Below are positions 4,150 to 62,414 of a stretch of DNA of 64,000 nt, one piece after another; the first letter of the stretch is position 1; each line of letters starts with the position of its first letter. The DNA is from Bdellovibrio sp. ZAP7 (GTDB taxonomy: Bacteria; Bdellovibrionota; FAC87; UBA2466): NCBI GenBank assembly GCA_945878405.1, contig CAMCTJ010000007.1:74779-138778 (forward strand), given 5' to 3'. The translations under genes and the position numbers were made by a program. The notes under the pieces were generated by a model that was given only the letters and a program-made list of their open reading frames with translations, was not told where the DNA came from and searched no databases.

Positions 4150-5743
4150 AGTAAATCCTTTGGTACCAAAAATAATTGTTCAAAACAAAACCGGTATAAT
4201 CTCTCGTTTCTCGATAAGGGATAAGATCCAAGAAAAGCAAGGGGTCTGATACTGGATAACGCTTTAGCCAACGACTAACCACTTCATCCCCGGCATTGTA
4301 GGCAGCTATTGCTAAGGGAAGACGATCATCAAAACGAGACAAATCCATTTGAATATGTCTTGCTCCTAATTCGATGCTTGTCTGGGGATTAAAAAGATCC
4401 GTCTGGTCTTTTCCCATCATTCGTTTTGCAGTGTTTGGATTAATCTGCATGAGTCCTTGTGCATCAGCCCACGATACTGCTTTTGGATTAAAACGACTTT
4501 CCTTTCTCGCAATCGCCATCAGCAGATAGGCGTCTACGCCTTCATTATTGCGAACAAAGAGTTCAAAAAATGGCCGCGGATACATTTGTTCGAGAGTCAT
4601 CTTATTCGCTAGGTGAGGTTGTGCTAATAAGACAGCAGGAATTTGGGTAATGGCGGTAGGGGGATCTGCAAGCGAAGCGAGATGCAACCTTACTTCACCT
4701 TCGAGACGTTGGTATTTTTTAAAACTCCATTCCGCAATAATGGCTGCCGAAAAATCAAACCCAAACTGCTTTAATATTTCAGCTTGTTTAATAAACGCAT
4801 TTGCTTTGGGGGATCGTGCACTTCGTGATTTTTTAATGGGAACTGTGTTCTGCCATCCAATCAAGGGCTCTGTTCCGACCTCCTGAGATGCTATGAGGGA
4901 ATGAAATGAGAGCGGGTGTTTAGCTAAAAGACGAGTGAGGGTTAATTCCGCTGCAACTTTATTTCCAGACAATTTCTGCGCTTGCGCAAGCCAGTAGAAA
5001 GCTCTTCCAGAAAAAGCGTCCATCGGCTGCACTTTTCTCAAAACCGACGCCGCTTTTTTGTATTCAGTGGCCCAAAACAAAAACAGTCCAGCTCGAGTGT
5101 AATAATGTTCCTGATCGATAGGATCGCGACGCGCACATTTTGCTCCCGCCTGGTACAAATCTGAAATTAAAACCTGGTGATTTCGTGTGGGCAGAAAGTC
5201 TTCGAGCATGGCAGCGACCGCTACTGCAAATCTGTTTGGGCATTTAGATTCTTTTAGGGTTTTCTCAGCAAGTAACAAGAGGTCTTGTTCGGAAGAGCCC
5301 GAGAGGCCTTTAAGAAGAGGTTCCATCTCAGAATGACGGAGTGCTTTTAAATTTACGATTTGGCCGCTCTCAATTTGGGGACGCACAGGAATAACCTCTC
5401 GTCTAGGAGGGGCAGTCGGGGTAATCGTTTTGTCCGCTACCAAGCGCAGCAGTTTTTGTCTTTGAAAAAAACCAGAACAAAAGGGGTTTGCTTTTTCCGC
5501 GTTTAAGCAATTCTTCACAATAGTCTTTTGTTCGTCCTCGGTTAGTTTTCCTCGAAGCATTCGATCAAAATTTTGTGCCTGACTAAAAAGAAGACTGCCA
5601 TCTCCCAAAATTGAGTCGGGGGGGCGATCACTGAAAAATTCATCCGCTGGGAGAACTGGGGAAGAGGGGACAGATATCGTTGAACACTGAGCCAAAACCA
5701 AAAAAAGGCAGATGCCCAAAACGAATTGGTGAAAAAGATTCAT
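4091..5743 (-). CDS. slt: Soluble lytic murein transglycosylase (Slt70-like; superhelical N-domain plus SLT catalytic domain)
   Basis: 550 aa with N-terminal signal peptide. Catalytic signature '[28 protein letters not shown]' and 'AYNAG'. Confidence 0.8.
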
Positions 5744-6219
5744 ACTTCGTTGCCTCTTTGAGGATCTTCTCTGTCCTCCTGCTCTTCTTCATCTTCCTGT
5801 TCTTCTTCGGTAGACACTGAATCGGGCTCACCATGTCGGATAAGCGCGCCATAATGGTTGGTTAGGGACAGTGAAAACAAGGTTAAAAGAGCTGTAATGA
5901 GCCCAAGCTTTTTAGTCCAACTTGAAACCTGGGTTTGACGAAAGGTAAGTGAAATAATCAGAAGAATAGAGGTCAGAATCGCAATAATGATAGAAATCTT
6001 AGCTAATTTTTCATGTTCCGACGAAAAAGATGCCTCGAGTAAACTTCCAGATAAATAAGTTGGGATGACTAGGAGGCACGCGATAATAGTCCAGATAAGA
6101 CCGATAGTTTCCCAATCCTTCTGTTTTTTTTTCCAGGCTAATCCAAAAAGAATCAAGGCAGCTAAGAGAAACAAGAGAGGAGAACGACTCAAGAATAGGT
6201 GGATTTGCGTTCCGGTCAT
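5740..6219 (-). CDS. Small polytopic membrane protein with acidic C-terminal tail, co-oriented with and overlapping slt
   Basis: 159 aa with about 4 predicted TM helices. C-terminus '[15 protein letters not shown]'. ATGA overlap with the slt start. Confidence 0.4.
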
Positions 6220-6337: not shown

Positions 6338-7516
6338 ATGCAGCATTTTGATTACGACATTTTGTTAGTTGGGGGCGGGTTAGTTAACGGGTTACTAGCC
6401 TGGCAACTAAAGCGGATAAAACCGTGGTTGAAGTTTTTAGTAATTGAGCGAGGGATTTCTTTTGGGGGAAGAAGTACGTGGTCTTTTCATGAGAAGGACC
6501 TTACTCCTGAGAGCCTGAATTGGATCCGGCCACTGGTGTCAGCTTCTTGGCCGTTTTACCAGGTGGTGTTTCCGGAATACGAACGCCAATTGGATAGTCG
6601 GTACTACAGTATTCGATCACGGAAATTCCATGAAGTGCTCTTTCAAGAGTTATCTGAGAATGTGAGATTTAATACGGATGTTCTTGCGGTTTCTGAGAAC
6701 CAAGTTGTTTTAAAAGATGGTAACATTCTTTCCGCTAAGGTGGTCATTGACGGGCGCGGAAAGCTTGAGCTCGAAGAAGGCGCTTGTGGATTTCAAAAAT
6801 TCTTTGGTCTGGAAATAGAACTGAATCATCCTCATGGCCTGAAGGCTCCGATTTTGATGGATGCTACTGTTGAGCAAAAAGAGGGTTACCGCTTTTTGTA
6901 CTGTCTCCCTTGGAGCGAAAACCGACTTCTCATTGAAGATACTCGATATAGTGAGACTCCCGAGGTTGATTCCGAGCAGTTCCGAAAAGAAATTTTGGAA
7001 TATAGTGCAGAAAAAAATTGGCAAGTCAGAGAAGTGTTTTACGAAGAGACAGGCTGCTTGCCCCTCCCACTAAAAAAACAGTTTTGTTTAGGGGGGCGAT
7101 CTCCGGAAAGCCTGAGAGAAACGCCACTGACCGTGGGAATGAGAGCGGGATTGTTTCATCCGACCACCGGATATAGTTTGCCGATGGCAGTTCAAACGGT
7201 TGACCTGTTGTTAAAAACACATGATGAGTCGAGTTGGGCTCAGACGTTAGAACATTTTTCCGAGAGTATCTATCGTCGTCAGTGGTTTTTTATTTTGCTT
7301 AATCGGGTAATGTTTTTATCCAAATGTCCAGAACAACGTTTTCAATTTTTGCAGCATTTTTACCGGTTACCGATTGACTTAATAGAAAGTTTTTACGCAA
7401 ATCGATTGAGTCTTTTTGAAAAAGCTCGATTTTTTCTTCGAACACCCCCAGTGCCAGTGAGAGCCGCTTTGTCAGCACTGAGAAAGGAGCTAGCACATGA
7501 ACTCTCATCAGAGTAA
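6338..7516 (+). CDS. crtY: Lycopene beta-cyclase (CrtY/CrtL family flavoprotein)
   Basis: 392 aa. N-terminal FAD fold 'YDILLVGGGLVNGLLAWQL'. Overall layout matches the CrtY family. First gene of the overlapping crt operon. Confidence 0.7.
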   Translation: MQHFDYDILLVGGGLVNGLLAWQLKRIKPWLKFLVIERGISFGGRSTWSFHEKDLTPESLNWIRPLVSASWPFYQVVFPEYERQLDSRYYSIRSRKFHEVLFQELSENVRFNTDVLAVSENQVVLKDGNILSAKVVIDGRGKLELEEGACGFQKFFGLEIELNHPHGLKAPILMDATVEQKEGYRFLYCLPWSENRLLIEDTRYSETPEVDSEQFRKEILEYSAEKNWQVREVFYEETGCLPLPLKKQFCLGGRSPESLRETPLTVGMRAGLFHPTTGYSLPMAVQTVDLLLKTHDESSWAQTLEHFSESIYRRQWFFILLNRVMFLSKCPEQRFQFLQHFYRLPIDLIESFYANRLSLFEKARFFLRTPPVPVRAALSALRKELAHELSSE

Positions 7517-8501
7517 TTGGCTACCGACTGCTAGGGCACTTGAAGAGTGGCTCGATCTGACGGAAAAAAGAGGCATTGAGGATCTTATTGGTAAGAGTCT
7601 TCTCGCGCCTCTCAATGAGTTTTTAAATCGGCCCAGTAAACACTTTCGTGGGCAACTAGTCAGAAGTGGTTTTGATCTGGTGAGTAACGGCGAAAGCCCC
7701 GGAAAATACGTTGAAGAGGCTATGCAGGTTCTCGAAGCCATTCATGCAGCTTCGCTAGTAGTGGATGATATTCAGGACAATAGCGAATTACGTCGAGGGC
7801 AGCCGGCACTTCATAGAACCTACGGTCTTGCCGTTGCCTTAAACAGTGCCAACTGGCTTTATTTTTGGCCTTTGGAAACGATTGAGCAATGGAGTGTTTC
7901 CGCTCAAACCAAGTTCGAATTAACGCGGGTTTGTCACCGCGCCCTTATTAGAGCTCATTCGGGTCAAGCGCTAGATGTGGGAACTCCGGTTTCTGAGTTG
8001 CCTCAAGAGCGAGTGAAATCAGTTTGTCTTGCTTCCCTTGAATTAAAGACCGGAGCCTTAACAGCTCTTGCGTTCGAGTTGGGAGCTGTGCTTGCTGGAG
8101 CGACTTCTGAACAAGTTTCTGAACTGTCTCGGGTAGGATGCGACTTTGGAACGGCTCTTCAAATGTTTGATGACTTAGGCAACATCAAGGAAAAGACTCC
8201 CCCAGATCCAAAACGGTTTGAAGATTTAAAAGGGAAACGTCCCTCGTGGGTTTGGGCTTCAGCAGCGGAGCTCCTCTCGAGCGACGAATACAGTCGGTTT
8301 AAAGAGGTGGTAAGCAGGCTGCCTGAAGAAGTAGAACTGAATCATTACTTTCAGAAAGCAGAGTGGATAGGTAAGGCGAAAAGGAACGCTCAGGAGTTTT
8401 TAGATGGGACTCTGGCGAGACTTGATCGCAAAATATGGAATGCAGCTGCAGTAGATAAAATGTTTATAATGGGTGAAACCCTAAAGAGGTCTTATGAGTA
8501 A
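7497..8501 (+). CDS. crtE: Polyprenyl diphosphate synthase (GGPP synthase-like, CrtE)
   Basis: 334 aa. First Asp-rich motif 'VVDDIQDNSELRRG' and second 'QMFDDLGN'. Overlaps crtY by 20 nt. Confidence 0.7.
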   Translation: MNSHQSNWLPTARALEEWLDLTEKRGIEDLIGKSLLAPLNEFLNRPSKHFRGQLVRSGFDLVSNGESPGKYVEEAMQVLEAIHAASLVVDDIQDNSELRRGQPALHRTYGLAVALNSANWLYFWPLETIEQWSVSAQTKFELTRVCHRALIRAHSGQALDVGTPVSELPQERVKSVCLASLELKTGALTALAFELGAVLAGATSEQVSELSRVGCDFGTALQMFDDLGNIKEKTPPDPKRFEDLKGKRPSWVWASAAELLSSDEYSRFKEVVSRLPEEVELNHYFQKAEWIGKAKRNAQEFLDGTLARLDRKIWNAAAVDKMFIMGETLKRSYE

Positions 8502-10941
8502 AAAAACACAGGCAATCGTCATCGGAAGTGGCTTTGGAGGTCTTGCTTGCGCCATTCGGCTGCAATCAGCTGGAGTCCAAGTCACCCTCTTGGAAAAACG
8601 TGATAAACCCGGGGGCCGAGCTTACGTTTATAAAGATAATGGATTTACTTTCGATGCTGGTCCAACGGTGATCACCGCCCCGCCTTGTTTAGAAGAACTG
8701 TTTGAACTGTCCACTCGAAACATTAAGGACTATGTCGAATTGGTTCCTGTTACCCCCCTCTATAAGCTGTTCTGGGAAGATGGATATGTTTTTGATTACA
8801 CCAACGACCATGAAAAAACTCTTGAGCAAATCCAAAAGCTCAATCCAGAAGATGCTAAAAATTACACCGAGTTTTTAAAGTACACGGAAGAGGTTTTCGA
8901 AGAGGGCTACACCAAATTGGCTCATGTTCCGTTTTTGGATTGGTGGAGCATGATTCGGGTGTCGCCTCAACTGATGCGTCTTGAGGCCTATCGTTCTGTG
9001 TACGGGATAGTGTCCAAGTACATCCAAGATCCCCATCTTCGTCAGGCTTTTAGCTTTCATTCACTCTTGGTGGGAGGCAATCCGTTTAGTACCTCCAGCA
9101 TCTACACGCTGATACATTTTCTTGAGAGAAAATGGGGGGTCTACTTTCCTATAGGGGGAACGGGAGCTCTCATTCAGGGGCTCGTTAAGCTTTTTGAGGA
9201 TTTAGGCGGCAAGTTGGAGTGCAATACAGAGGTGCATGAAATTGTAACTGAAAACGATCGCGTAAAAGGTGTCGTCACTAAAAAAGGGGAGACGCTCTTG
9301 GCCGATTTGGTTGTCAGTAACGCGGATGTCTTTCACACCTATCACCATCTCCTTAAACGAGAACCGAAGCTAGATAGTTCTCGAAAGAAGCTTGAGCGTA
9401 GTCGCTTTAGCATGTCTTTGTTCGTGATTTATTTTGGCACCAATAAACAGTTTCCACAGTTTGAGCATCACAACATCGTGTTTGGGCCTCGATACAAAGA
9501 GCATCTGGCGGATATTTTCAAACGAGGTGAACTGGCAGAGGATTTCTCACTCTATGTACACCGACCAACAGTGACGGATCCCAGCTTGGCGCCCGAGGGG
9601 TGCGATGCCTTCTACGCGCTTTCACCGGTCCCACATCTAGAAAAATGTGATGTTGATTGGACCGTAGAAGGTCCCCGTTATGCCAAGTCAATCATTGATT
9701 ACCTGGATGAGAGATACTTGCCGGGCCTTTCGGAATCTATTGTTACCCAACGAATCTTTACGCCACTAGACTTTGAAAGCGAACTCAATGCACGTTGGGG
9801 ATCGGCATTTTCATTGGAGCCAGTCCTTCATCAAAGTGCCTATTTTAGAACCCATAACCGAGACGACCAGTTTTCTAACCTCTATTTTGTGGGGGCCGGA
9901 ACCCACCCCGGAGCAGGGATTCCTGGAGTAGTCGGCTCGGCAAAAGCAACAGCTGGTTTAGTACTTGAGGATATAAAAAAAAAAAGATCTGTAACGACCG
10001 AGAGCCAGACCGAAGACCTAGCGAAACAGTGTCAGACCATCATTGAGAAAGGGTCTAAGAGCTTTTCGTTAGCCAGTCGTCTGTTTGATGAAAAAACTCG
10101 AGATGCCGCTTGTTTTCTCTATGGCTGGTGTCGTTACGTGGATGACGCAATCGATGAAGTTGAAGATCCCTCAAAACAAAAAACAGTTCTGGAGCAATTA
10201 AAAACCGAGACGCAACAAGCTTTTGACGGAACGCCTACTGATAATGTTGTTTTTCAGGCGCTCGGCAAAGTTGCAAAGGATTATGAAATTCCCAGCTACT
10301 ATGCTTTGGAACTTCTCAAAGGCATGGAGATGGATGTAGAAAATAAGCGCTATCCTGAAATGAAAGACCTCAGCCTCTATTGTTACCGTGTTGCCGGTTG
10401 CGTGGGCCTTATGATGAGTCACATCATGGGTGTTTCCGAAGAGGGAGCGCTTAAACACGCTTCTGACTTAGGAATTGCAATGCAGCTTACCAATATTTCA
10501 AGAGATGTGATGACAGATGCGAGAATGGGAAGAGTTTATTTGCCTCTCGGCTGGCTTCAAGAAATGGGGATGGAAGAAAAAGACGTTTTGAATCCTGCCT
10601 TTCGTACTTCAATAGCTTATTTTGTTCGAAAGCTTTTGAGAGAGGCTGAAGCCCGTTATGAATTGGGGATTCAGGGGCTTAAATTTCTCCCTTGGAGATC
10701 GGCTTTGGCAGTTTCAATGGCCATCTGTGTCTACCGAAAGATTGGAAGAAAAGTTGAGGAGCGACGGGAAAAAGCCTGGGATTCTCGCACAGTAGTCACA
10801 AAAACGGAGAAGCTACTTTGTGTCTTTAAAGCGGTTGGGTATGTCGCTCGAACGTTACGATATCGACTTTTAAAGCCGTGGAAAAAAGTAGATAATTTAC
10901 AACTCTGGAGACATCAGTGGAACACAGCCGAACTTTCTTAG
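8494..10941 (+). CDS. crtIB: Fused phytoene desaturase (CrtI, N-terminal ~495 aa) and phytoene synthase (CrtB, C-terminal ~310 aa)
   Basis: 815 aa. N-terminus 'AIVIGSGFGGLACAIRL..GGRAYVY' is the CrtI Rossmann fold. The C-terminal half has 'SKSFSLASRLF..YGWCRYVDDAIDE..ARMGRVYLP', the squalene/phytoene synthase motifs. The linker contains an A11 run at 9975-9985. Confidence 0.8.
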   Translation: MSKKTQAIVIGSGFGGLACAIRLQSAGVQVTLLEKRDKPGGRAYVYKDNGFTFDAGPTVITAPPCLEELFELSTRNIKDYVELVPVTPLYKLFWEDGYVFDYTNDHEKTLEQIQKLNPEDAKNYTEFLKYTEEVFEEGYTKLAHVPFLDWWSMIRVSPQLMRLEAYRSVYGIVSKYIQDPHLRQAFSFHSLLVGGNPFSTSSIYTLIHFLERKWGVYFPIGGTGALIQGLVKLFEDLGGKLECNTEVHEIVTENDRVKGVVTKKGETLLADLVVSNADVFHTYHHLLKREPKLDSSRKKLERSRFSMSLFVIYFGTNKQFPQFEHHNIVFGPRYKEHLADIFKRGELAEDFSLYVHRPTVTDPSLAPEGCDAFYALSPVPHLEKCDVDWTVEGPRYAKSIIDYLDERYLPGLSESIVTQRIFTPLDFESELNARWGSAFSLEPVLHQSAYFRTHNRDDQFSNLYFVGAGTHPGAGIPGVVGSAKATAGLVLEDIKKKRSVTTESQTEDLAKQCQTIIEKGSKSFSLASRLFDEKTRDAACFLYGWCRYVDDAIDEVEDPSKQKTVLEQLKTETQQAFDGTPTDNVVFQALGKVAKDYEIPSYYALELLKGMEMDVENKRYPEMKDLSLYCYRVAGCVGLMMSHIMGVSEEGALKHASDLGIAMQLTNISRDVMTDARMGRVYLPLGWLQEMGMEEKDVLNPAFRTSIAYFVRKLLREAEARYELGIQGLKFLPWRSALAVSMAICVYRKIGRKVEERREKAWDSRTVVTKTEKLLCVFKAVGYVARTLRYRLLKPWKKVDNLQLWRHQWNTAELS

Positions 10942-11501
10942 AAGACACAGTTCACTACGCTAGCCGGATGAAGCTCTTCAATCGTGAGGATTGGAAGGTT
11001 TATTTCGCTTGGATTGGGTTGATGCTTGGGCTCTTGGGATCTGTTACCGGATTTCTCGTATTTGGTTTTCTGAGTGGCGTGCAATACCCCGCCTATGTGT
11101 GGAATGTACCTATTGGGATTTTTATTTTCGTTGGAGCTATCGCTTTCGATACCATTGGCCACCGAACCGCCTACAAGCAAGCCTTGAAGACCGGAGAAGA
11201 TCTGGTTCACCACATTACGATTTTTGCCGGCATCACCAGTGTCTTCACGCTTTGTCTGGCCTATTCTCACCGGGAGTTTTTAAGAATTCCGGCCCTCGTT
11301 CTGACGGTCCTCTCTGTGTTTTACAGCGTTATTGACGAAGCAATGCATTGGGTTCGGTACATGGCCGGAAACTCCGATCGGATTGAAATGTGGAGCCATT
11401 TTTTCATTTTTGTGGGGCACCTTATCATGGTGATCGGTTGGTGGCATTGGTTCGAACAGGGGTACCCTGGAGTTTTTGAAACCCTTAAATTAATAAAATG
11501 A
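10917..11501 (+). CDS. Hypothetical polytopic membrane protein, translationally coupled to crtIB
   Basis: 194 aa with about 5-6 TM segments and several His/Trp clusters (HHITIF, HWVRYM, GWWHW). Overlaps the crtIB end by 25 nt and the next gene by 4 nt. Family not recognised. Confidence 0.45.
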   Translation: MEHSRTFLEDTVHYASRMKLFNREDWKVYFAWIGLMLGLLGSVTGFLVFGFLSGVQYPAYVWNVPIGIFIFVGAIAFDTIGHRTAYKQALKTGEDLVHHITIFAGITSVFTLCLAYSHREFLRIPALVLTVLSVFYSVIDEAMHWVRYMAGNSDRIEMWSHFFIFVGHLIMVIGWWHWFEQGYPGVFETLKLIK

Positions 11502-13603
11502 AAAAACTTACTTTCGGTCTCTTGGCGGTTCTTTTAGTCCTCCTCCTGGGAATAGTAACTATTCCGTTTTTTGTCGATGTAGATCGGTTTCGACCCGAAA
11601 TATTGGAATTGGTAAACTCGAAAATCAATGGGCATTTCAACCTGGGTAAGCTCAAGCTGACTCTTTGGGGGGAACTAGCAGTTGAAGCGGATGAAGCTAT
11701 CTTGACCGATTCGAATAAGGCTCAAATTTTATCAGTGGGAAAATTCAAGTTGCGAGTACCCCTTCGGTCATTACTCGCCATGAAACCGGAAATTCAAGTT
11801 GTGATGCAGAAGCCCAGGGTGCAGGTCAAAAGAGACCAACGGGGGGAATGGAATGTACTCACTCTTATAAAGCAAGAGAAAGCTCAGGGAGTGGTCGGGG
11901 CTCAAGTCCCAGAAGCCAAAAGCCCTGAAGTTCCCAAAGCCGCGATAGAGGCAAAAGCTCCAGTGACAGAAGTCGGTCCTTCTTGGGCCCAGCAGGCTAC
12001 CGTTTCAATTTCAATCGAAGAGGCGGCTCTTAAGGTTGAGGATTCGAAATCACATTCTCACTATGAATTGGATCGGTTGAATTTAAAAACCGGATCCTTG
12101 TCCCTTGATTCTCTTCCCATGTTTAAGCTTTCTGGAATTTTAGGGGCTTTAACTGAAGGGCAAGGAGAGATTACTGGTCCGTTCGAAATTAACGGCGAGA
12201 GCAAAGATAAGGCCCTTAATCTTTCAGCGAACTTTGACAAGGTTTCTTTGGCCCTGGGTGCTTTTCAAAAAAAGAGTGGTTCTCCCGCTCGCCTTCGCAT
12301 GTCCATTAAAAAGACGAACGATACCTACTTGGCTGAAGGTGAGTTAGAGCCAGTCAAAGTAGGAGGAAACTATCTTAAGCAAGACGTTGAAGTAACGGCC
12401 CAATGGAAGGCTACAACTGATGCAGTTGAAAAGGCAGTTCTAAAATTAAAGGCAAAGGCTTTTGATTGCGAAGTCTCCACTCAAGTTAAATCCTTTGAAA
12501 ATCCTAAAATCATGGTGAATGTCCTTTCGAATGAAATGAACCTAGATGAGTTAGTGGATTGGGTAAAAATGAAAAACGCTTCTCCACCAGCCCGAAAAAC
12601 AATCGATAAGGGGGAGGCGCCGGTCCCGGTTATGCCACAATCGACAAAGGCGGCCTCGGCAACTCCAGCGACCACGGCCCCATCAACTCCCAGTGCACCC
12701 GCTAAGACTGCCTCTGGGGAAATTGTTTTCAATGCAAGGGTTATAAAACTTTATCAAATGCAGCTTGAACCAGTCAGAGGAAAGTTCCTTTTGAGAGACC
12801 AAAAACTCGCTGGTACTTTCGATGAGATTCGCCTGTGGGGCGGGAAAATCAAGGGAACAACTCAAGTAGATCTAACAATGAAAGCTCCTAAATATGCTTT
12901 TCAAGTGCAATTGGATGGATTGAGCCTTGGAGAGGCCGTCGCTTCGAAAATGGAGTTTTTCAAAAATACGATCAGGGGATCACTCAGCGGGGAAATGTCT
13001 GGCAAAGGAGAGGGAGCGGACGCTAACTCGGCAAAAAAGAGTTTAAACGCGAATGGAAAAATGTTTATCGCCGGAGCAAAGCTGAACACGTTTGATATTC
13101 ATAAAATGGTGGCCGGAGGGATTAAAGGAGCTTACGAAAAAGTCTCGGAAAAAATTCCTGCTCTTAAAGGGAAAGAGCTGAAGATGGGAGATGTTTCATC
13201 AGAGTTTAAAAAAATTACCGCTACCTTCACCATAAAAGAGGGGGAATTTCAGTCGCCCGATTTTTTTGCTGAGGCCATTCCCCAAAAAGGAGTGGACATC
13301 AAAGGAAATATGAAAGTTGGACTTTTGGATTTTGCGCTCAAAGCAGATTGGGAAGTTTACGATACTTATAATCTTTTGCATGTCGACCCGATTTTAATCG
13401 AGCGTGGAAAGCCCTTCCGAATTCCTATTTCAGTCGGGGGAACGTTGCTCAGTCCGGAATACAGTTACCTCCAGATTCCAGAAGCTTTGGTTCAAGTCGC
13501 GCTAAAAAACCTGGGAGCTGCAGCTCAAGAAAAAGCCACTCAGGAAATAAAGAAGCAGGCCGAAGGACAAATCAAAAATATTCTCAAAGGGATTTTTAAG
13601 TAA
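11498..13603 (+). CDS. AsmA-family outer-membrane biogenesis/lipid-transport protein
   Basis: 701 aa. N-terminal TM anchor 'MKKLTFGLLAVLLVLLLGIVTIPFFVDVDRFRPEI' is typical of AsmA/TamB-like proteins. Long beta-rich periplasmic region. Confidence 0.65.
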   Translation: MKKLTFGLLAVLLVLLLGIVTIPFFVDVDRFRPEILELVNSKINGHFNLGKLKLTLWGELAVEADEAILTDSNKAQILSVGKFKLRVPLRSLLAMKPEIQVVMQKPRVQVKRDQRGEWNVLTLIKQEKAQGVVGAQVPEAKSPEVPKAAIEAKAPVTEVGPSWAQQATVSISIEEAALKVEDSKSHSHYELDRLNLKTGSLSLDSLPMFKLSGILGALTEGQGEITGPFEINGESKDKALNLSANFDKVSLALGAFQKKSGSPARLRMSIKKTNDTYLAEGELEPVKVGGNYLKQDVEVTAQWKATTDAVEKAVLKLKAKAFDCEVSTQVKSFENPKIMVNVLSNEMNLDELVDWVKMKNASPPARKTIDKGEAPVPVMPQSTKAASATPATTAPSTPSAPAKTASGEIVFNARVIKLYQMQLEPVRGKFLLRDQKLAGTFDEIRLWGGKIKGTTQVDLTMKAPKYAFQVQLDGLSLGEAVASKMEFFKNTIRGSLSGEMSGKGEGADANSAKKSLNANGKMFIAGAKLNTFDIHKMVAGGIKGAYEKVSEKIPALKGKELKMGDVSSEFKKITATFTIKEGEFQSPDFFAEAIPQKGVDIKGNMKVGLLDFALKADWEVYDTYNLLHVDPILIERGKPFRIPISVGGTLLSPEYSYLQIPEALVQVALKNLGAAAQEKATQEIKKQAEGQIKNILKGIFK

Positions 13604-13743: not shown

Positions 13744-15540
13744 TTAAAGAGATTTCTGTGGTGCGGCGAGTCGCAACCCTTCATGGATGAGTTTCGCGAT
13801 ATCGGAGGGGCTCTGTTTTGCTTGGACAAGAAGCCTTTCTTGTAAGTGTTCTCCCAAGGCCCGGCTTCCCTCAGCTTGAAGCAGAGAGGAGTTCAGGAGC
13901 TCTAAAATTTCCACATTTAAAAGCCATTCTTCAGGAGTTTGCGAAAGGATTTGGCCGCTCATCTTCTTTAGCTCGGTCACAGAGGCTTTGGCTTCATCTC
14001 GCATTTTTCGAAGGCTGTCGTAGAAAACGGACACTTTATTTTCTAAAGCAGAGTAGGGAGAAGCCCTTCCCGGAGAGGTACTGACTTTTCCCAGCTCGTA
14101 CTCACCATAAAGTTCTCTCTCGGCGGGGCCTGCATGAACCGAAACTGCTTTTTCACCTACGACTTGATCAAAGTCTCCCCATTCGGGCTGATAAAATACT
14201 TCACTGCCTCGGCTCACCCGACAGTTTTTCCATTGAATCAAAACTAGTTTGGCTTCAGAGCGGACCCAATCCATTAACTCGCCTTCAATCACAAATCCCG
14301 ACACAAACTCCAATCGGCAGCGAGCCCCTTTTTTAAGTCCGATTCGTGTGAGTTCATCATCATTCAACTCACTTGCGGGTTTTTGGGGAGCCGCCTTCCA
14401 TCTTCCCACTGGGGAACTAAATCCTTCAGGGTGTCTCTCCCGGCCTTGACCGGGGAGTTCTTTTTCAGCACAAGCAATCTGAACAGGGCCTTGATACTTT
14501 ACGAAATGCAGCTCATTTTTCTCTTCAATGAGTTGACAGAGATCTCCGCTGATAGAAGCCCCTTGCTCAAAGACACAAGTTGTAATCGTTCCCGAGCGCA
14601 GTGCTTTTTTCACAGACTCCACGCCGCCCACACGATAGCTTAAAGTTTCTTCGAGCTCGACCAATACAGCCGGCAGGTGCTCGAGAGATTCCGCCACAAA
14701 AAGTTGGGGTTGGGGCTCTGTAATATCATAGGTCTGATGCACGCAATCGATTGATAGCCGAATTTTTTTAACTTCCGGGCTCAAGCAATGTTTACTTTCA
14801 GCCACCGAAGAAAGAAGTCCAGCCCCGTAAATTTTGGGGTGTTTTAAATCTCCCACCAGCCCATATTCGGCAGTCCACCAATTCATGCGGGCAACCCTAT
14901 TGAGCTCGCTGATTTCAGAAATAGCTTTGATTTTTAGTTCTAAGTTATTTTCAGCTTCTTTTAGTTGCTCTTGCGTAGTGTCGGGATTTTCTTTGATATC
15001 CGACATCACTCGCACAGCTTCGTAGAGTGAAATATCTTCTTTGGTTTGCAGGGCCTTTTTTGCCATCCTTGCATACTGCTTGAAATAATCTCGGTAGAGG
15101 GGATCGGCCAAAATCGGTAAGTGGCCAGCAGCTTCATGAACAATATCGGGAGCCGGAGTATAACCAACATGTTCTAGCGTGCGCATATCCATCGCAATGG
15201 GCATGATCCCGCGAGCTTGAAAATCCAGAAATGCCGATGGGGGAATAAATCCGCTCACGCCGACTGCGCCCCACCCGAAATCTCGTAAACATTTATCAAT
15301 GTCATCAATTTTCGGAATTTTCTCTAAGCTAATCCCCGTTTTCTTGAGACCTTCCCTATAAATCGGAACCGCATGGTCTTTAAAAAAATCTCGGGCTTGT
15401 CTTAAGATATATCTCCAAGTGGATTGTTCGCGGGCAGTATAGCGAGCATAGTCTTGCCCTTTACAATACTTTTTTAAATAACCCGGAATGCGTTCTGAGG
15501 CTGGCATGGGTCCAATATACAATGACCTTTTCCTTTTCAC
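13744..15540 (-). CDS. Aromatic amino-acid (phenylalanine-4-) hydroxylase-like protein with ~300-aa C-terminal extension
   Basis: 598 aa. 'FGWGAVGVSGF...YTPAPDIVHEAAGHLPILADP' matches the biopterin-dependent hydroxylase iron-binding core (PDIxHExxGHxP). The C-terminal half is unassigned. Confidence 0.65.
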   Translation of the reverse strand: MKRKRSLYIGPMPASERIPGYLKKYCKGQDYARYTAREQSTWRYILRQARDFFKDHAVPIYREGLKKTGISLEKIPKIDDIDKCLRDFGWGAVGVSGFIPPSAFLDFQARGIMPIAMDMRTLEHVGYTPAPDIVHEAAGHLPILADPLYRDYFKQYARMAKKALQTKEDISLYEAVRVMSDIKENPDTTQEQLKEAENNLELKIKAISEISELNRVARMNWWTAEYGLVGDLKHPKIYGAGLLSSVAESKHCLSPEVKKIRLSIDCVHQTYDITEPQPQLFVAESLEHLPAVLVELEETLSYRVGGVESVKKALRSGTITTCVFEQGASISGDLCQLIEEKNELHFVKYQGPVQIACAEKELPGQGRERHPEGFSSPVGRWKAAPQKPASELNDDELTRIGLKKGARCRLEFVSGFVIEGELMDWVRSEAKLVLIQWKNCRVSRGSEVFYQPEWGDFDQVVGEKAVSVHAGPAERELYGEYELGKVSTSPGRASPYSALENKVSVFYDSLRKMRDEAKASVTELKKMSGQILSQTPEEWLLNVEILELLNSSLLQAEGSRALGEHLQERLLVQAKQSPSDIAKLIHEGLRLAAPQKSL

Positions 15541-32840: not shown

Positions 32841-33162
32841 GGGCTTTTCCTTAAGCAAAACCCAATCCAAATCTAGACAGCCGTAAACTCGATAAGCAGG
32901 TGTCTAACTTTTTTGGGACTACACCAGGAAGATTAAAAAACCACAATGAGAGCAGCCTCTTAGAATGTCTAATTCCTATACACCATTAAGTTCCTACAAA
33001 TTCCAATGCACAAACGAGGGCTTAGCCAAAAGGTACGGCTTTACTTTAGGCGGTTTTTTAATATCCTAGAAGATATCCCAAGGAGCGCTGCGAGGCACCT
33101 TCTGCCCTAGGCTTGGAATTTATAACGGCGCTCAATCCAATAAAATTTTTAAGGAGCCAGAC

Positions 33163-34563
33163 ATGCACAGCGTAAGAGATTTTGTCGTTGCCGATATGGG
33201 ATTAGCCGATTGGGGTCACAAAGAAATAAAAATTGCGGAAACAGAAATGCCTGGCCTTATGGCAATTCGCGAAGAGTATGCAGCTTCTCAGCCCCTCAAA
33301 GGAGCTCGGATTACTGGCTCCCTTCACATGACGATTCAAACGGCGGTTCTGATTGAAACGCTTACTGCCCTGGGAGCAAAAGTTCGTTGGGCTTCTTGTA
33401 ACATTTTCTCAACGCAAGATCATGCGGCAGCAGCAGTTGCCGATTGGGGAGTGCCGGTATTTGCAGTGAAAGGCGAAACTTTAGCTGACTACTGGGAATA
33501 TACCCATCGAATTTTTGAGTGGACTGATGGCGGGTACACCAACATGATTTTGGATGATGGCGGGGACGCTACTCTTTTACTTCACTTAGGTGCCAAAGCT
33601 GAAAAAGATATCTCTGTGCTAGCGAAACCCACTTCAGAAGAAGAAACTGTTTTATTTGCAGCGATTAAGAAAAAACTATCTACAGACCCCAAGTGGTATT
33701 CTACTCGCCTGTCTCATGTAAAAGGCGTGACGGAAGAAACCACCACGGGAGTGAATCGCCTCATTCGTATGCATGAGCGAGGTGAATTAAAGTTCCCCGC
33801 GATCAATGTGAATGATTCAGTAACGAAATCCAAATTTGATAATCTCTATGGATGCCGTGAATCTCTCGTCGACGGAATTAAGCGCGCTACCGATGTGATG
33901 GTGGCTGGAAAAGTAGCTGTCGTCGCTGGCTACGGAGATGTAGGAAAAGGCTCAGCTCAAGCTTTAAGAGCGTTATCGGCTCAAGTATGGGTGACGGAAA
34001 TCGATCCCATCTGCGCACTTCAGGCAGCGATGGAAGGTTACCGAGTGGTCACAATGGATTATGCGGCTGATCAAGCCGATATCTTTGTGACTGCCACTGG
34101 GAATTTCAATGTAATCACTCATGAGCACATGGCTAAAATGAAAGACCAAGCGATTGTCTGTAATATCGGACACTTTGATAATGAAATCGATGTGGCTTCG
34201 CTTGAAAAATATAAGTGGGAAGAGATTAAGCCCCAAGTCGATCATGTGATTTTCCCCAATGGAAAAAGAATTATTCTTCTCGCAAAGGGCCGGTTAGTTA
34301 ACTTAGGTTGCGGGACAGGCCATCCTAGTTATGTGATGTCTTCTTCTTTTGCGAATCAAACGATTGCTCAAATTGAGCTATTTACGCAAACGGCGAAATA
34401 TCCAGTGGGCGTCTACACATTGCCAAAACACCTTGATGAAAAAGTCGCTCGGTTGCAGCTTAAGAAGCTCAATGCTGAATTGACAGTACTAAGAGACGAT
34501 CAAGCGAAGTACCTGGGAGTTTCCTTGCAAGGTCCCTACAAGCCGAATACTTATCGGTACTAG
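33163..34563 (+). CDS. ahcY: Adenosylhomocysteinase
   Basis: 466 aa. '[10 protein letters not shown]', '[20 protein letters not shown]' (NAD fold) and C-terminal '[21 protein letters not shown]'. Confidence 0.9.
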
Positions 34564-50620: not shown

Positions 50621-53600
50621 GTGAAACGCTTCCTTCCATTTCATGCTGTCCTTTTATTCTTCGCGGTTTGCTTTGCTTCTTTTGCAGAAGAAAAAGGTCG
50701 GCTGAGTGCGAGTGATTTGGCGCCTGGTGCATCGGATGGTTTCGTCTTTAGTAATTCCGCAACTCCAGATACTCAGTGCGATGAGGGCAGTGGGGGTGAC
50801 TGCTGCGATGGAACTCTTCAAGAAACGTTTGCCGGGGTAACGAAATTCACAACAAGTTACTGCAAAGGCCGATATGCCGGAAAAGCAAGCTCCACTCGTT
50901 ACGGAATTCGGTTTGATACGTTTCACGCTTTTCGAAGTATCCTCAACGAAAATCAGTTAGTACTTGTGAATTCGAATGCTGGATGCACGAGCGGCGACTG
51001 CTGCCCCACCGGCGGAAGTAAGACCTATAACTGGCTCCTAGTAAGAGCGAGACCTTTTGATAATTACAGCTCGCCGATGGATATGTCGCTGGATACGACT
51101 TACGTTGGGGGAACCATCACCTATGACCATTCGCAAACTGTAAAGTGGTCCGGATCTTCAAAATTTAGTTTAAATGCCCTAGATGCTGAAACGAAGACTA
51201 ACTCCTCTGCTTATGGAGCCCGGCTTTTTGGAACTTCTACCTGCAGCGCGGGAGAATTTAAAGCAAGCGCAGTCACAGATTTTACTGCCGCCAATAGGCC
51301 TCTTGGAAATTATGGGTACTGGCTCTTTGGTAAGAACGTAGCTTTCTACCGACAGGTAAGTGCAGATCCTGTCATTGCCGTTGCTTTTCCAAGGCCAGCG
51401 CAGAGTCTGAGTTCTTCTGGAGTAATGGCTAGTAAGAACAAACAAGTTTTTACTGGAAATTATACCGGCTTCACGACGAGGGGAGTTCAGGTTCAAAGAA
51501 ATGTCATGCTGATTCCTGATGTCGCGGGAACAACTTTTACGATTTCGGAAGTAGCAGATCCCTCCAATCCCTTCTCAGTCAGCACTCTGGGGACTTTAGC
51601 TTGCACGAATTTAGATGAGCCGAGCCAAGGTTTCTGCCGAGGCACCCTGACCCTGACTGCAGTTCCTGGATTTTCAGGAAAAGCCACTTGCATGATGGCT
51701 TACGATATCGGTAATCGGGATCTTGTTTTTTGTAGCGCGCAGAATCCCTCCGCTGATAGCAATCACCAACGAGCGCTCGTCACCATTGCGGCAGTTTCAT
51801 CGCACAAGAGCGTTCTTGCGATGACTGCGTCGCCAGTACACTTAGATGCCAATACCTCCAGTGGGCAAATGTGTGCAACCGTGGAAAATATGACGTCGCG
51901 AGCAGTCGACACATTAACGCTTACTGGAAACTTAAGTGGTGACTTCTCGGCGGTTTCTCTCTCAGGTTCTGTCACAGCGCCGTTCAGTGGCCTTACTGGT
52001 TCAGTGTCAGCTTGTGGCACTTCTTTGCCAGCTTTTTCAAAATGTAAATTGTGTTCGAATGTTACTTTAACGACTCAAAAAGTAAGTGCCCACGCTTTAA
52101 CCCTGACTTTTGGAGATACACCGAGTTCGACAAAAAGCATGTCAGACACAGCGGTTGCGACTCGTGGGGTTTCGAACCTTCAATATGAAGTGGGGAAAGT
52201 AACCCAGAACAAGACTCCCTCGGTTAAAGCCGTCTTTGCCAATGGCACTACCCAAAACATTGATGCAATTAAGGAAAAGCTACAGTGTTCAGGAGTTTGT
52301 ACTTCAGCCACTGGAACCCGATCGCTTGCCTATACCTTGGAAGGCCTTGAGAGCGCTCCCGCAGTGGGCGATGTGCTCGTAAGCACTGAAGAAGAGCTTT
52401 GTTACAACGAAGAAGACGACGACAACGACGGAACCACCGACTGCCAAGATAACGACTGCGATTCCGAAAGAGCAGATATCAGTCACACCGATATTCTATG
52501 TAATTATAATAGCGAGCGAGATTGTGCAGACTCTTTTGATAATGATCGAGATGGGAATACCGATTGTGATGATGGAGATTGTGCCCTTGCATGTAATGTT
52601 TGGGAAACCGCTTGTAACAATAGTCTCGACGATGATTCTGACGGAAACACAGATTGTGCCGATTCAGATTGCAACGGACAAGTAAATGCTGACTTTAGAT
52701 ACTGTGGTCTCGAGACTCACTCCTATGGTGGGTGTGTGCTCGATGGAGTTGACGATGACAGCGACGGTTATACCGATTGCGCCGATCCGGATTGTTACGG
52801 CGGTTATGTTGGTTGGGGACCCTATGGAGGAACTTGTGACTCTGGAACTGAAACTAATTGCAGCGATGGATACGATTTCGACGGCGATGGTTTAACTGAC
52901 GCCAATGATCCAGATTGTGTGGTCTGCCTTGATTCTGACGGCGATACGTTTGGTGACGGTTGCTCTGCTGGCTCCGATTGCGATGATAACTTCAGCGACG
53001 CTTCCAACAATTGCTCCGACAACGTGGTTTTAGATTTGCGTTTCGATACAGATACGAGCGATTCCTCGAACTATCATCACGCGGTTGGAGCTAATGGAAG
53101 CCCCGCTATTTCCACGAGCAACGCGAAGTTTGGTGGAGGGAGTGCAAACTTTAATGGTAACGGCGACAGAATCGATATTTCCTCAAGCACAGATTTTGAT
53201 CTGGAAGACGGGGACTACACTATTGAGTTCTGGACTTTTGTACGAAGCGTAGCAGGGTCAGATGCTGCTAGATTGTTTACTTTAGAAAATAACGATGAGG
53301 CGTGGGGAATAATTCTTGCCAACGATGGTAGCAACAGTCTTTACGTGAATCATTATGGAATTGGTGAGGGTTTTGAAGTCAGTGGCGCACTCAACGGGAA
53401 ATTGAACCAGTGGGTGCATCTGGCCTTGGTGAAGAACGGCACAACTAGAACTCTTTATATTGATGGGGTAGCTGGAGGCTCGACCAACTCAAGAGTGTTG
53501 CCGGCTAATGCTGCGCAATTATCAATTGGTGGCAGTACCATTTGGTATCCTTATACACAGTTTGACGGTCTTATCGACGAACTGAAAATCACCAAAGGCT

Positions 53601-56600
53601 ATGCACGCTACACCACAAACTTCACACCTCCCACTTGCGCATCGATGAGCGAATCCGATGCCGATAGCGATGGTATCTGTAATAGCGCGGATACTGAAAG
53701 CTGCAGTGATTCGATTGATAACAACGGTAATGGCCAGACGGATGAAGAATGTTCTTCTTGCAACAGTAGCGATTCCTCCTCGGCAATTTGTAACCAAACT
53801 GGCACTTGCTGGAATCAAAGCGGTTGTCAGTGTGGAGTCTATGATTCAGTTAGCTACGGGCAATCCTGTACGATGGGCGGTGGCGGATCAACCGAAAACT
53901 GTTCTGATTCATTAGATAATGATTCCGATGCTTCAACCGATTGCCAAGATGCGGATTGTGATGGGGTGTCAGGCGGTAGCGGTATCTGTCACAACAATTC
54001 TGAAACTTGTAGTGATAGCTTTGATAATAATGGCAATGGCCAGACAGATGAAAATTGTTATCCCTGCATGGACAACGACGGCGATGGATATGGTTATTAT
54101 TGTGCGATCGGTGAAGATTGCGACGATTGGGCTAATTGGATAAACCCCGGTGCTTCAGAAATCTGGAATGGGTACGATGACAACTGTAACGGCCAGGCCG
54201 ATGAAGGACTTGGCAATCCCTTTGACTGGGACGGAGATGGGTGGCTATCTTACATGGGAGATTGGTTTGATTGCAATGATGCCGATGGGTCCATAAACCC
54301 CGGTGCTTCCGAAACCTGCAGCGACTCAGTCGACAACAACTGCGATGGCCAGACAGATGAAAATTGTTATCCCTGCATGGACTACGACGGTGACGGGTAT
54401 GGTTACTACTGTGTTCCCGGCGAAGATTGTCAGTGGAATATGGGAGAGGGGAATTCCGCTATTCACCCCGGAGCTGCAGATGACCAAAGCGATGGTACCG
54501 ACAATGATTGCGACGGTCAGATCGATGAAGATTATACAGTTCCGTGCACAGATTCGGACACTGATGGCGTGTGCAGTGGATCTGACTGTGACGACAGCAA
54601 CGCAATCTTCAGCACAGATTGCAGCAGCAACGTGGTTTTAGATTTGCATTTTAATAGCGACTTCAGTGATTCTTCGGGTCACAATCACAATGGGACTCCA
54701 AATGGAAATGCGGAAATCAGCTCTGATGTTGCCAAGTTCGGGGGAGGCAGTGCGCATTTTGATGGAAGTTCTTGGTTAACAGTAACGGCGTCTTCAGCTC
54801 TCGCTGTGGGAACGGGTGATTTTACCTTGGAAGCCTGGGCTTATCCGACACAAGTTAATGACTTTAGCGATTTGGCTGCCGTACTAGATACACGGCCCTA
54901 TGGCGCGGGAACTGGCTTACTGATTTGGTTGGATTCTGCTTCTGGAAAATGGGTAGGGTATACCTCTACAAACGGAAATGAGGATCAACTTGTTATTAGT
55001 TCCCCTACAACAGCAACCCTCAATGCGTGGACTCATTTAGCATTGGTGCGTTCCGGAACAAGTCTTAGGTTCTTTGTAAATGGAGAACTTGCCGGAACCG
55101 AAACTTTAAATGCTAACTGGAATTTTACTCAGGACACTACGGCACCGGGTTTTGTGGGAACTGCAGCCGATGCCCCTGGATACTTCCGCAACTTCTATGG
55201 CTATATCGATTCAGTAAAAATCACCAAAGGCGCAGCGCTCTACACAACCACCTTCACGCCCGCTACTTGCGCATCGATGAGCGAATCTGATGTCGATAGC
55301 GATGGCATCTGTGATAGCGCGGATACTGAAAGCTGCAGTGATTCAATTGATAACGATGGCGATAGTCAGACAGATGAAGAATGTTCTTCTTGCAACAGTA
55401 GCGATTCCTCCTCGGCAATTTGTAACCAAACTGGCACTTGCTGGAATCAAAGCGGTTGTCAGTGTGGAGTCTTTGATTCAGTTAGCTACGGGCAATCCTG
55501 TACGATGGGCGGTGGCGGATCAACCGAAAACTGTTCTGATTCAGTAGATAATGATTCCGATGCTTCAACCGATTGCCAAGATGCGGATTGTGATGGGGTG
55601 TCAGGCGGTAGCGGTATCTGTCACTACAGTTCAGAAACGTGCAGTGATAGCTTTGATAATAATGGCAATGGTCAAACAGATGAGAACTGCAATTCTGACG
55701 TAAGCGGCGGCGATCCGTACTTTGATGATGTGAGAGTGCTTGTTCATGCGGACGAAAACATTACGAATCATGCAAACGGGGGAACGCCCACAGTAACTTT
55801 CGTTGGCGGAGCGAATTACTCGACCTCCGACAAGAAGTTTGGATCAGCTTCCGCGCAGTTCTCACCGCAGATAACCCAGTACTGCGATGGGTGGTGGGGT
55901 TGTTATGACCAGTTAGTAGTTCCCAATTATTTAAAGATAAACGACACCTCAAGAACGATTCCTGCGAATTACACTGCTGAGTTCTGGGTAAAACCCGATT
56001 CCGATTGGAGTGGCGCAGTCTCAAGAAGATTATATCAACGAGGCGTTAGCGATATGGGGATGTATGGTATCGATGTTTATTACAATAACAATCGAATCTA
56101 TTTTAGTTTTTACAATAGCAATTATTACTATGATGGGTCTGGTGAGGGGGGGTGCGATCAATCGGGTAGCACTTATGGAGATGTTGGTACTTTGAGTGCG
56201 AACACTTGGTACCACGTAGCGATTGTGAGAGAGGGTAGTGCGATCAGAATTTATTTCAACGGAAACCGAATTGGGACGGGCACACTAAGCGCTAATTCCT
56301 ACACGTATTGGGGCACAATTCCCTCATGTACTGCCACAGAAGCTATCACACTTAGCGATTGGGGAAATGTAAACGAAGGTTTCGGAGTATCTTTTGACTA
56401 CGGTGACAATATTTACGATAACGTCACCGCTAAGTTTGACGAAATCCGAATCAGCAACAGAGCTCGTTACTCAGATACAAGCTTTACTCTTCCCACTTCG
56501 CCGTATCCCAATACCAAGCAAGCGGTAGCTCCCGAAATCAGTATTTCGCCCTCGAGCTACACGTTAACAGCTGGCACAGCGATGACAGCGATTGTTCCAA

Positions 56601-61766: not shown

Positions 61767-62414
61767 ATGAAAATAAAATTGTCGCGCGGCGCCCAGCAAC
61801 AAGGAGTGGTTTTTGGAAATGCCTATCCAAAGTACACTTCAAAAAATCCCCTTGTGAAATGGCTCATGAAGAACTTCGAATCTCATATCGAGGATCTCTT
61901 AAAACAAATTTCTCCTGAGACGATTCATGAAGTCGGCTGCGGGGAAGGGTTTTGGGTTCTTCATTGGAGAAAAAAGGGATTTAAGATCAGAGGCTCGGAT
62001 TTCTCTTCGCTCGTTATCGATATTGCAAAAAAAAATGCTGAGCAAATGGGAGCAGATCCAAACCTGTTCTCTGTTCGCTCTATTGAAGAACTCAATACCA
62101 CAGAGGATAGCGCTGAGTGTATCTTATGCTTAGAAGTGTTAGAGCACTTAGAAAAGCCCCAATTCGCTCTTGAAAAATTAAAGGCCCTTGAAGCTCGGCA
62201 CTACGTTTTCAGTGTGCCTCAAGAGCCGGTGTGGCGAATATTAAATGTTCTTCGAGGCAAGTACCTTACGAGCTTTGGAAATACCCCTGGACATCTCCAA
62301 CACTGGTCTCGCGGTCAATTTGTTAAGTTTATTTCTGAGCATTTCAGAGTAGAAAAAACGGTGGGGCCGTTTCCCTGGACTGTTGTCTTGTGTTCGCCAA
62401 AGTCACAAACCTAA
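61767..62414 (+). CDS. Class I SAM-dependent methyltransferase
   Basis: 215 aa. 'IHEVGCGEGFWVLH' (motif I), 'ILCLEVLEHLEKP' (motif III-like). Confidence 0.6.
   Translation: MKIKLSRGAQQQGVVFGNAYPKYTSKNPLVKWLMKNFESHIEDLLKQISPETIHEVGCGEGFWVLHWRKKGFKIRGSDFSSLVIDIAKKNAEQMGADPNLFSVRSIEELNTTEDSAECILCLEVLEHLEKPQFALEKLKALEARHYVFSVPQEPVWRILNVLRGKYLTSFGNTPGHLQHWSRGQFVKFISEHFRVEKTVGPFPWTVVLCSPKSQT

Follow-up and report, generated by a model that had tools for sequence, protein, structure and literature searches.

A conserved CrtI-CrtB fusion in a Bdellovibrio contig, with a probably tolerated A11 run at its domain boundary

We analyzed a 64,000-nucleotide stretch of contig CAMCTJ010000007.1 from Bdellovibrio sp. 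ZAP7 (hereafter the window), in which the carotenoid gene crtIB carries an uninterrupted run of 11 adenines (A11) at the boundary between its two domains. The gene is one open reading frame (ORF) that joins a phytoene desaturase (CrtI) to a phytoene synthase (CrtB) in a predicted protein of 815 amino acids. As the preliminary description of this DNA had stated, the run lies within an intact ORF in which both domains are complete; their enzymatic activities are predicted from sequence. The desaturase half is recognized by TIGR02734 (crtI_fam) over residues 7-503, with 695 bits against a cut-off of 238 and covering model positions 1-501 of 504, and by Pfam Amino_oxidase over residues 15-491. For the synthase half, SQS_PSY (PF00494) matches residues 518-770 with 244 bits (cut-off 26; model positions 2-261 of 263) and the CrtB model NF042419 spans residues 510-785; the NCBIfam CrtB equivalog score of 278 bits is under its cut-off of 480, which is a caveat on this domain. 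In an alignment of 39 fusions the catalytic residues are invariant in both halves, including both Asp-rich motifs of the synthase (D550 D551 D554; R670 D671 D675), which are found in 39 out of 39. The AlphaFold2 (AF2) model made from these 39 fused homologues has two folded domains, with a mean predicted local distance difference test score (pLDDT) of 86.6. The sole stretch at the junction with pLDDT <50 comprises residues 499-507, right after the lysines; the two others are 468-474 and the C-terminal 810-815.

The A11 run (9975-9985) is the longest homopolymer of the window, the runners-up being an A9 at 62027 and a T9 at 6124. It is in frame within the codons GAG GAT ATA AAA AAA AAA AGA TCT GTA ACG and encodes I494 K495 K496 K497 R498, of which K495-K497, from the three AAA codons, belong to the very C-terminal end of the CrtI domain. 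To see what a change of length does to the product, we simulated alleles of the run. The A10 allele encodes 499 amino acids ending in ...KKKDL, with a TAA stop two codons after the loss, and the A12 allele encodes a CrtI of 517 amino acids with a 19-residue tail that ends at a TGA (Table 1). The A8 and A14 alleles keep the frame. The run is thus a hypermutable repeat within an ORF whose length changes switch the frame, as expected of a contingency gene. A stop immediately 5' of the run closes the frame of CrtB in both the A10 and the A12 allele, and from the run onward no ATG, GTG or TTG from which a separate CrtB could start is found before GTG 10138 in any allele frame. That GTG already lies in the catalytic core, in the region of the first Asp-rich motif. 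Because of the upstream stop and the missing start codon, CrtB cannot be made alone. The preliminary description had read the locus in the same way: it saw no independent CrtB start, and it predicted that loss of one base would leave a stand-alone CrtI and abolish CrtB, which is what the simulated A10 allele gives and what a natural scaffold described below encodes.

We conclude from sequence comparison that crtIB is a genuine, evolutionarily conserved fusion and not an artefact. A collection of 5.8 billion proteins contains at least 63 clusters (at 90% identity) of proteins of 797-838 amino acids with both Pfam domains, ranging from 97% down to ~50% identity. The junctions of these fused relatives vary in sequence and length, and most of them have no lysine run (for instance FQTRGQ, FGLQEK, FRSTEG and LRQISF, among others). 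The fusion does not owe its origin to the A11 run. It had been proposed that it could be the product of a sequencing indel, the true run being A10 or A12 and crtI and crtB two separate genes. Homopolymers are indel hotspots, and in the genome collection searched crtI and crtB are indeed adjacent yet separate in many relatives (L004-L021). However, ~20 independent assemblies, made by different projects with different assemblers, agree on A11, CrtB lacks a separate start codon, and homologous fusions exist without any homopolymer. Since the run is this reproducible and most fused relatives do without one, the fusion cannot be attributed to an indel, and we consider an artefact extremely improbable. 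In many relatives, crtI and crtB are found adjacent, frame-shifted or overlapping.

Fused (~810 amino acids) and unfused (~500 amino acids) CrtI proteins interleave in a neighbour-joining tree of the CrtI domains of P0001-P0120. This suggests recurrent fusion and fission of the crtI-crtB pair, although the tree carries no support values and should be read as a hint. The stand-alone CrtI proteins of relatives have ~495-500 amino acids and end 2-10 residues past the same LED motif. Because stand-alone enzymes end at that place, a slipped product of 499 amino acids would be a native-like CrtI. The closest named records are metagenome-assembled genomes (MAGs) labelled Proteobacteria/Pseudomonadota, Bdellovibrionales, Pseudobdellovibrionaceae and Bacteriovoracaceae, and the best stand-alone CrtI match is that of Peredibacter starrii. 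These labels make the host, an uncultured freshwater bacterium, probably Bdellovibrionota-like.

Fusions of this type have been described before. A natural CrtIB fusion occurs in verrucomicrobial proteorhodopsin/retinal operons, in Ca. Pelagisphaera phototrophica ISCC53 (ISME J 2023, PMC10284914). Like it, the gene studied here is a single bacterial gene with CrtI N-terminal and CrtB C-terminal, located within a crtE/crtY cluster. The lineage differs, as the nearest MAGs here are labelled Bdellovibrionales, Bacteriovoracaceae or Pseudomonadota. Unlike the verrucomicrobial operon, the cluster adjoins no rhodopsin or blh gene among the ~16 flanking ORFs that we scanned (~1-19.7 kb of the window), and it has a gene of its own downstream, orf194. 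The verrucomicrobial paper is silent on a homopolymer at the junction, and the likeness between the two is one of architecture. The thraustochytrid CrtIBY, a trifunctional beta-carotene synthase, is a eukaryotic fusion that is experimentally functional (PMC10016063, PMC5924542). It has the same order of CrtI followed by CrtB in a single polypeptide, but it is eukaryotic and has an extra CrtYc/d cyclase domain, whereas the window has a separate CrtY-type gene upstream. Bacterial CrtIB has therefore been known since 2023 from Verrucomicrobiota; the >60 clusters found here, from freshwater and other metagenomes, show that it is widespread and has been overlooked in annotation. Databases label the fused clusters just 'phytoene desaturase'.

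To assess how stable the run is among strains, we surveyed tract length in the assembly consensus of all accessible members of the 90% cluster to which the window protein belongs. For 12 out of 12 other loci (L026-L036 and L044, from ENA, JGI and Logan assemblies) the run is A11. These loci represent at least six haplotypes, with crtIB at 94.6-100% nucleotide identity to the window, so that within this species-level group A11 is stable across strains differing by up to 5% of their nucleotides. Sequences identical to the window occur in ERZ27280281 and ERR3719164. In all, a census of the group gives ~20-25 contigs with the frame ON (A11) and one with the frame OFF (A10), that is, ~95% of assemblies ON. 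ON and OFF lengths are thus not both common among close strains (one A10 against ~20 A11, at the level of consensus). The window protein's cluster contains no A12-type product, and the collection of 15 billion proteins holds no further orphan CrtB fragments beyond the 267-amino-acid one, for which an exact look-up finds only two sources, L025 and L044.

The single A10 contig is L025 (ENA ERZ18672059, sample SAMEA9560429, GROS21-1 scaffold_5400), which shares 99.7% identity with the window. Leaving aside two N-gaps from scaffolding, the deletion in the run is its only indel in 12.2 kb, and its protein P0128 has 499 amino acids and ends in ...LEDIKKKDL, exactly as predicted for the A10 product. 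It is a gapped scaffold with N runs, and its A10 may be either a true allele or an error of the consensus. We rejected this allele as a proof of phase variation: fusion clusters without the tract also hold occasional split genes that are broken elsewhere (P0177/P0178 and P0142/P0143), and one disrupted contig is therefore within the background. The other source of the orphan fragment, L044 (Logan ERR13385610 contig 49651), differs from the window by 15 single-base indels over 9.9 kb, and every gene on it is fragmented; it nevertheless retains A11. Some public contigs of this organism are therefore error-rich, and truncated proteins from them should not be taken to reflect biology. For instance, the 337-amino-acid protein P0127 was considered as a second natural frameshift allele and rejected, because its source is this noisy assembly, which is still A11. 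For annotation, this means that the 815-amino-acid call is correct, and that calls of 499 and 267 amino acids reflect a one-base change in the run (L025) or assembly errors (L044). Two further scans of a metagenome contig collection, with a variable-gap pattern across the run and with A8 plus the 3' flank, returned no matches, although the JGI contig L026 has the sequence; the collection evidently does not include these samples.

Three metagenome contigs of this species-level group carry an unrelated lesion in the CrtI domain, a nonsense change of K232 from AAG to TAG (L026 2363-2365, homologous to window 9187-9189; proteins P0125, P0129 and P0130). The 569 codons downstream and the A11 run are intact in these contigs, which makes this an independent natural loss-of-function allele of crtIB. 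It suggests that some populations can do without carotenoid synthesis.

These observations bear on the proposal that the run is a heritable ON/OFF switch for pigment, in which replication slippage between A11 and A10 or A12 would reversibly toggle CrtB and pigmentation. In the homopolymer contingency loci of host-adapted bacteria (Neisseria, Haemophilus, Campylobacter and Helicobacter), which usually affect surface structures, ON/OFF polymorphism is frequent among and within strains. The resemblance to crtIB is that of a mononucleotide run in an ORF where +1 and -1 changes truncate the protein. A11 is long enough for hypermutability, changes in either direction abolish CrtB, the near-identical strain L025 differs by A10 as its sole indel, and the K232 loss-of-function allele, present in three contigs, circulates, so loss of the pathway is tolerated in nature. 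The distribution is nonetheless unlike that of contingency loci, since ~95% of the assemblies and all sister lineages are ON. Only one of the ~20-25 contigs is OFF, A12 and additional orphan CrtB fragments are absent from the collections searched, four out of four other tract-bearing lineages are in frame, split genes arise at similar rates in tract-free clusters, and the gapped L025 may owe its A10 to a consensus error. A comparison with orthologues had been set beforehand as a possible refutation of the switch, and it did turn up relatives with the same fusion and no homopolymer. Our literature search found no precedent of homopolymer-driven phase variation of pigment; the 'crtIB' of PMC9304148 was rejected as a fusion, being the Myxococcus xanthus gene crtIb. 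What stands of the proposal is the frame-switching run and one A10 scaffold, whereas the rarity of OFF, the missing A12 and the split genes of tract-free clusters speak against the switch itself. A phase-variable switch is thus weakly supported, and we regard it as quite unlikely.

Because the DNA is in frame in ~95% of the assemblies and in all sister lineages, slippage at the RNA level fits the data better than classical phase variation. We think it probable that crtIB is a real fusion with a leaky boundary that is tolerated or incidental, and possibly mildly useful, with no dedicated ON/OFF switch. RNA polymerase, and less so ribosomes and the replisome, would slip on A11, and a minority of the gene's products would then be free CrtI in place of CrtI-CrtB. 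Rare heritable A10 or A12 mutants, arising by DNA slippage, would be left without CrtB and so unable to make any carotenoid. On the side of the ribosome, Koutmou et al. 2015 reportedly observed sliding on poly(A) lysine tracts. Several bacterial genes provide experimentally established precedents for slippage on A-runs of 9-11 nt. In the dnaX gene of Thermus thermophilus, slippage of RNA polymerase on an A9 yields 50% of short product (PMC1088944). The A11 of tssM1 in Citrobacter rodentium yields 20-25% of frameshifted product, and an in-frame poly-A of tssM3 in Yersinia pseudotuberculosis yields 15-25% of truncated product (PMC4256274). The crtIB gene resembles dnaX and tssM3 in having an in-frame run of at least nine adenines on the sense strand (nine A or T on the coding strand being the threshold taken from PMC1088944) and a close stop in the alternative frame that would define a discrete shorter product. 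In dnaX and tssM3, translation of slipped transcripts yields a shorter protein whose end falls at a domain boundary, and the same is predicted here. There are also differences. Two products are demonstrated for dnaX and tssM and are needed in the case of dnaX and C. rodentium tssM1, whereas those of crtIB are predicted from sequence, and the run is absent from most of the orthologous fusions of crtIB.

The slip could in principle also occur on the ribosome in a programmed manner, with -1 frameshifting on an A AAA AAA heptamer giving the 517-amino-acid product. Canonical slippery heptamers are present within the run, and a GAGG lies a few bases upstream of it in the window. However, a -1 frameshift site is expected to combine its heptamer with a stimulatory RNA structure downstream, and we detected none around or downstream of the run: folding was no better than that of shuffled controls (z -1.0 for 90 nt and -0.2 for 181 nt). 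The GAGG is not conserved, being replaced by GAA GAT or GAA GAC in other lineages, and the near stop that is conserved is the one in the other frame. We give this mechanism almost no credence.

To evaluate whether the run itself is under selection, we compared it with what chance would produce. Under a model of independent and identically distributed (i.i.d.) bases, 0.045 runs of at least 11 adenines are expected per 64 kb. We rejected this rarity as an unfair null, as shuffling synonymous codons while keeping the proteins and the codon usage gives 0.47. The same shuffle predicts 1.1 runs of at least 10 and 3.1 (3.09) of at least nine adenines, and the window has 1, 1 and 3 for the three lengths. 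AAA represents 67% of the lysine codons, and two out of eight KKK motifs are encoded entirely by AAA (52 longest non-overlapping ORFs of the window). Long A-runs are therefore neither avoided nor favoured in this genome, and given the peptide IKKKR and the 67% usage of AAA, A11 is not surprising there.

The same site in related lineages gives a different impression. It reads GTC AAA AAA AAA AAG (A11) in L001 (91% amino acid identity), CTT CAA AAA AAA AAT (A10) in L037/P0002 (87%), CTT AAA AAA AAA AGA (A10) in L002/P0003 (85%) and TTA AAA AAA AAC (A9) in L043/P0011 (76%), and it is without a run in L038/P0004 (84%) and L041/P0005 (83%). These lineages agree at only 30-43% of four-fold degenerate sites, which amounts to near saturation. 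The peptides at the run differ (IKKKR, VKKKK, LKKKR, LQKKN and LKKNQ), and yet an AAG interruption occurs in none of the tract-bearing lineages.

Two aspects of this comparison weigh against a merely tolerated run. First, all 4-5 lineages whose peptide permits a run of at least nine adenines have one (A11, A11, A10, A10, A9). With the observed peptides recoded by sampling from the codon usage of the respective gene, four independent capable lineages would all have such a run with a joint probability of 0.0044, or 0.002 if L001 is included, in a post hoc test on 4-5 lineages. If slippage were merely wasteful, a synonymous AAG should have interrupted the run. Second, in four out of five tract-bearing lineages (the window, L001, L037 and L043) the loss of one base leads to a stop within two codons and to a product of exactly 499 amino acids. 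The off-frame stop arises from differing codon pairs (GTA ACG, GTA GCA, ATA ACG and GTG ACG), and the homologous stop is also kept in L041. At a random position an off-frame stop of this kind has a baseline of 0.13-0.19 per lineage, which is higher given the conserved V/I-T residues. The persistence of the run and of the stop is not predicted if the boundary is only tolerated, and it hints at selection on the nucleotide run. We regard it as suggestive that the A-run is somewhat better conserved than codon usage predicts, in tests that are post hoc and cover few lineages.

One may consider a programmed cassette for transcriptional slippage, in which the A-run and the off-frame stop would be maintained to supply CrtI-CrtB plus free CrtI of 499 amino acids. 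CrtI must act four times per phytoene, and a fixed mixture of products would lift the desaturase-to-synthase ratio above the 1:1 of the fusion. Consistent with such a cassette, an uninterrupted A9-A11 is present in every lineage whose peptide permits it despite synonymous saturation (p ~0.004), the run persists while the peptide varies, and the 499-residue product is reached via non-identical codons and matches the termini of natural stand-alone CrtI proteins. The DNA is also in frame in each lineage, a trait shared with dnaX of T. thermophilus and tssM3 of Y. pseudotuberculosis. On the other hand, most fused lineages do without the run, including P0004 and P0005, which are nested among the tract-bearing ones; the statistics come from a post hoc choice of 4-5 lineages and partly reflect the conserved V/I-T residues; and A11 does not stand out in the window, where long A-runs are not avoided. 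We consider a cassette unlikely, though less so than a phase-variable switch, and still favour a tolerated leaky boundary.

If the predicted slippage is real, it would show a simple way in which nature adjusts the ratio of two enzymes inside a fusion, and would be of interest to carotenoid engineers, who build CrtI/CrtB fusions by hand. If the run is a cassette, it would relieve the 1:1 stoichiometry of the fusion and would be the first case of a metabolic enzyme fusion tuned by slippage.

Table 1. Features of the crtIB gene and its operon, in window coordinates
Feature	Position	Strand	Basis or remark
crtY, lycopene beta-cyclase, first operon gene	6338..7516	+	PF05834 E 9.5e-77; TIGR01789 CrtY 365.7 bits (cut-off 215)
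crtE-like polyprenyl (GGPP) synthase	7497..8501	+	PF00348 E 3.2e-42
crtIB, phytoene desaturase-phytoene synthase fusion, single ORF of 815 aa	8494..10941	+	Pfam, NCBIfam, AF2 model, >60 clusters alike
CrtI (phytoene desaturase) domain, residues 7-503	8512..10002	+	TIGR02734; GxGxxG FAD motif N-terminal
A11 homopolymer (ATA AAA AAA AAA AGA)	9975..9985	+	Lys-rich end of last CrtI helix, before flexible linker; slippage-prone
Flexible interdomain linker, residues 499-507	9988..10014	+	pLDDT <50; sequence and length vary among fused relatives
Hidden TAA	9992..9994	+	Read on loss of one A (DNA or RNA); ends CrtI-only product of 499 aa, as in L025/P0128
CrtB (phytoene synthase) domain, residues 510-785	10021..10848	+	PF00494, NF042419, Asp-rich motifs
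Hidden TGA	10044..10046	+	Read on gain of one A; ends CrtI of 517 aa
orf194, conserved uncharacterised membrane protein	10917..11501	+	683 homologues
AsmA-family gene	11498..13603	+	Fifth gene of overlapping series

The crtIB gene is part of an operon of tightly overlapping genes (window 6338-13603; Table 1). Successive genes overlap by 20 nt (crtY/crtE), 8 nt (crtE/crtIB), 25 nt (crtIB/orf194) and 4 nt (orf194/asmA), which suggests that the carotenoid genes are translationally coupled with the AsmA-family envelope protein. The same gene order is found in the loci that we fetched for the seven closest lineages. For the crtE-like product, the equivalog models of geranylgeranyl diphosphate (GGPP) synthase score below cut-off, and its chain length (GGPP) is inferred from gene context. 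The orf194 protein has no sequence match in Pfam, NCBIfam or PDB; it has invariant His, Asp and Glu residues. Its gene lies directly 3' of crtB or crtIB in 13 loci, and given its 25-nt overlap with crtIB the two are probably translationally coupled. Coupled to crtB or crtIB in many lineages, orf194 is a candidate for the carotenoid pathway and may be an undescribed component of it. The genes flanking the operon are chromosomal housekeeping genes (SLT transglycosylase, acyl-CoA dehydrogenase, flagellar rod/ring).

The two 9-nt homopolymers of the window were located as well. The T9 at 6124-6132 (+) is an A9 in the coding strand of ORF 5740-6219 (-), where it encodes KKK as TGG AAA AAA AAA CAG; the product of this ORF is a membrane protein of 159 amino acids, divergent and next to crtY. 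The second run is the A9 at 62027-62035.

Other features of the window include a gene on the reverse strand (13744-15540) for a 598-amino-acid protein with an N-terminal biopterin-dependent aromatic amino-acid hydroxylase (PF00351) and a C-terminal extension of ~300 amino acids, a gene that most of the sufficiently long loci of close relatives also have beside the operon. An S-adenosylhomocysteine (SAH) riboswitch (RF01057; 51.8 bits, gathering threshold 37) at 33074-33140 (+) lies directly upstream of ORF 33163-34563, presumably a gene of the S-adenosylhomocysteine hydrolase type. Finally, a giant ORF at 50621-59299 (+) encodes a protein of 2892 amino acids.

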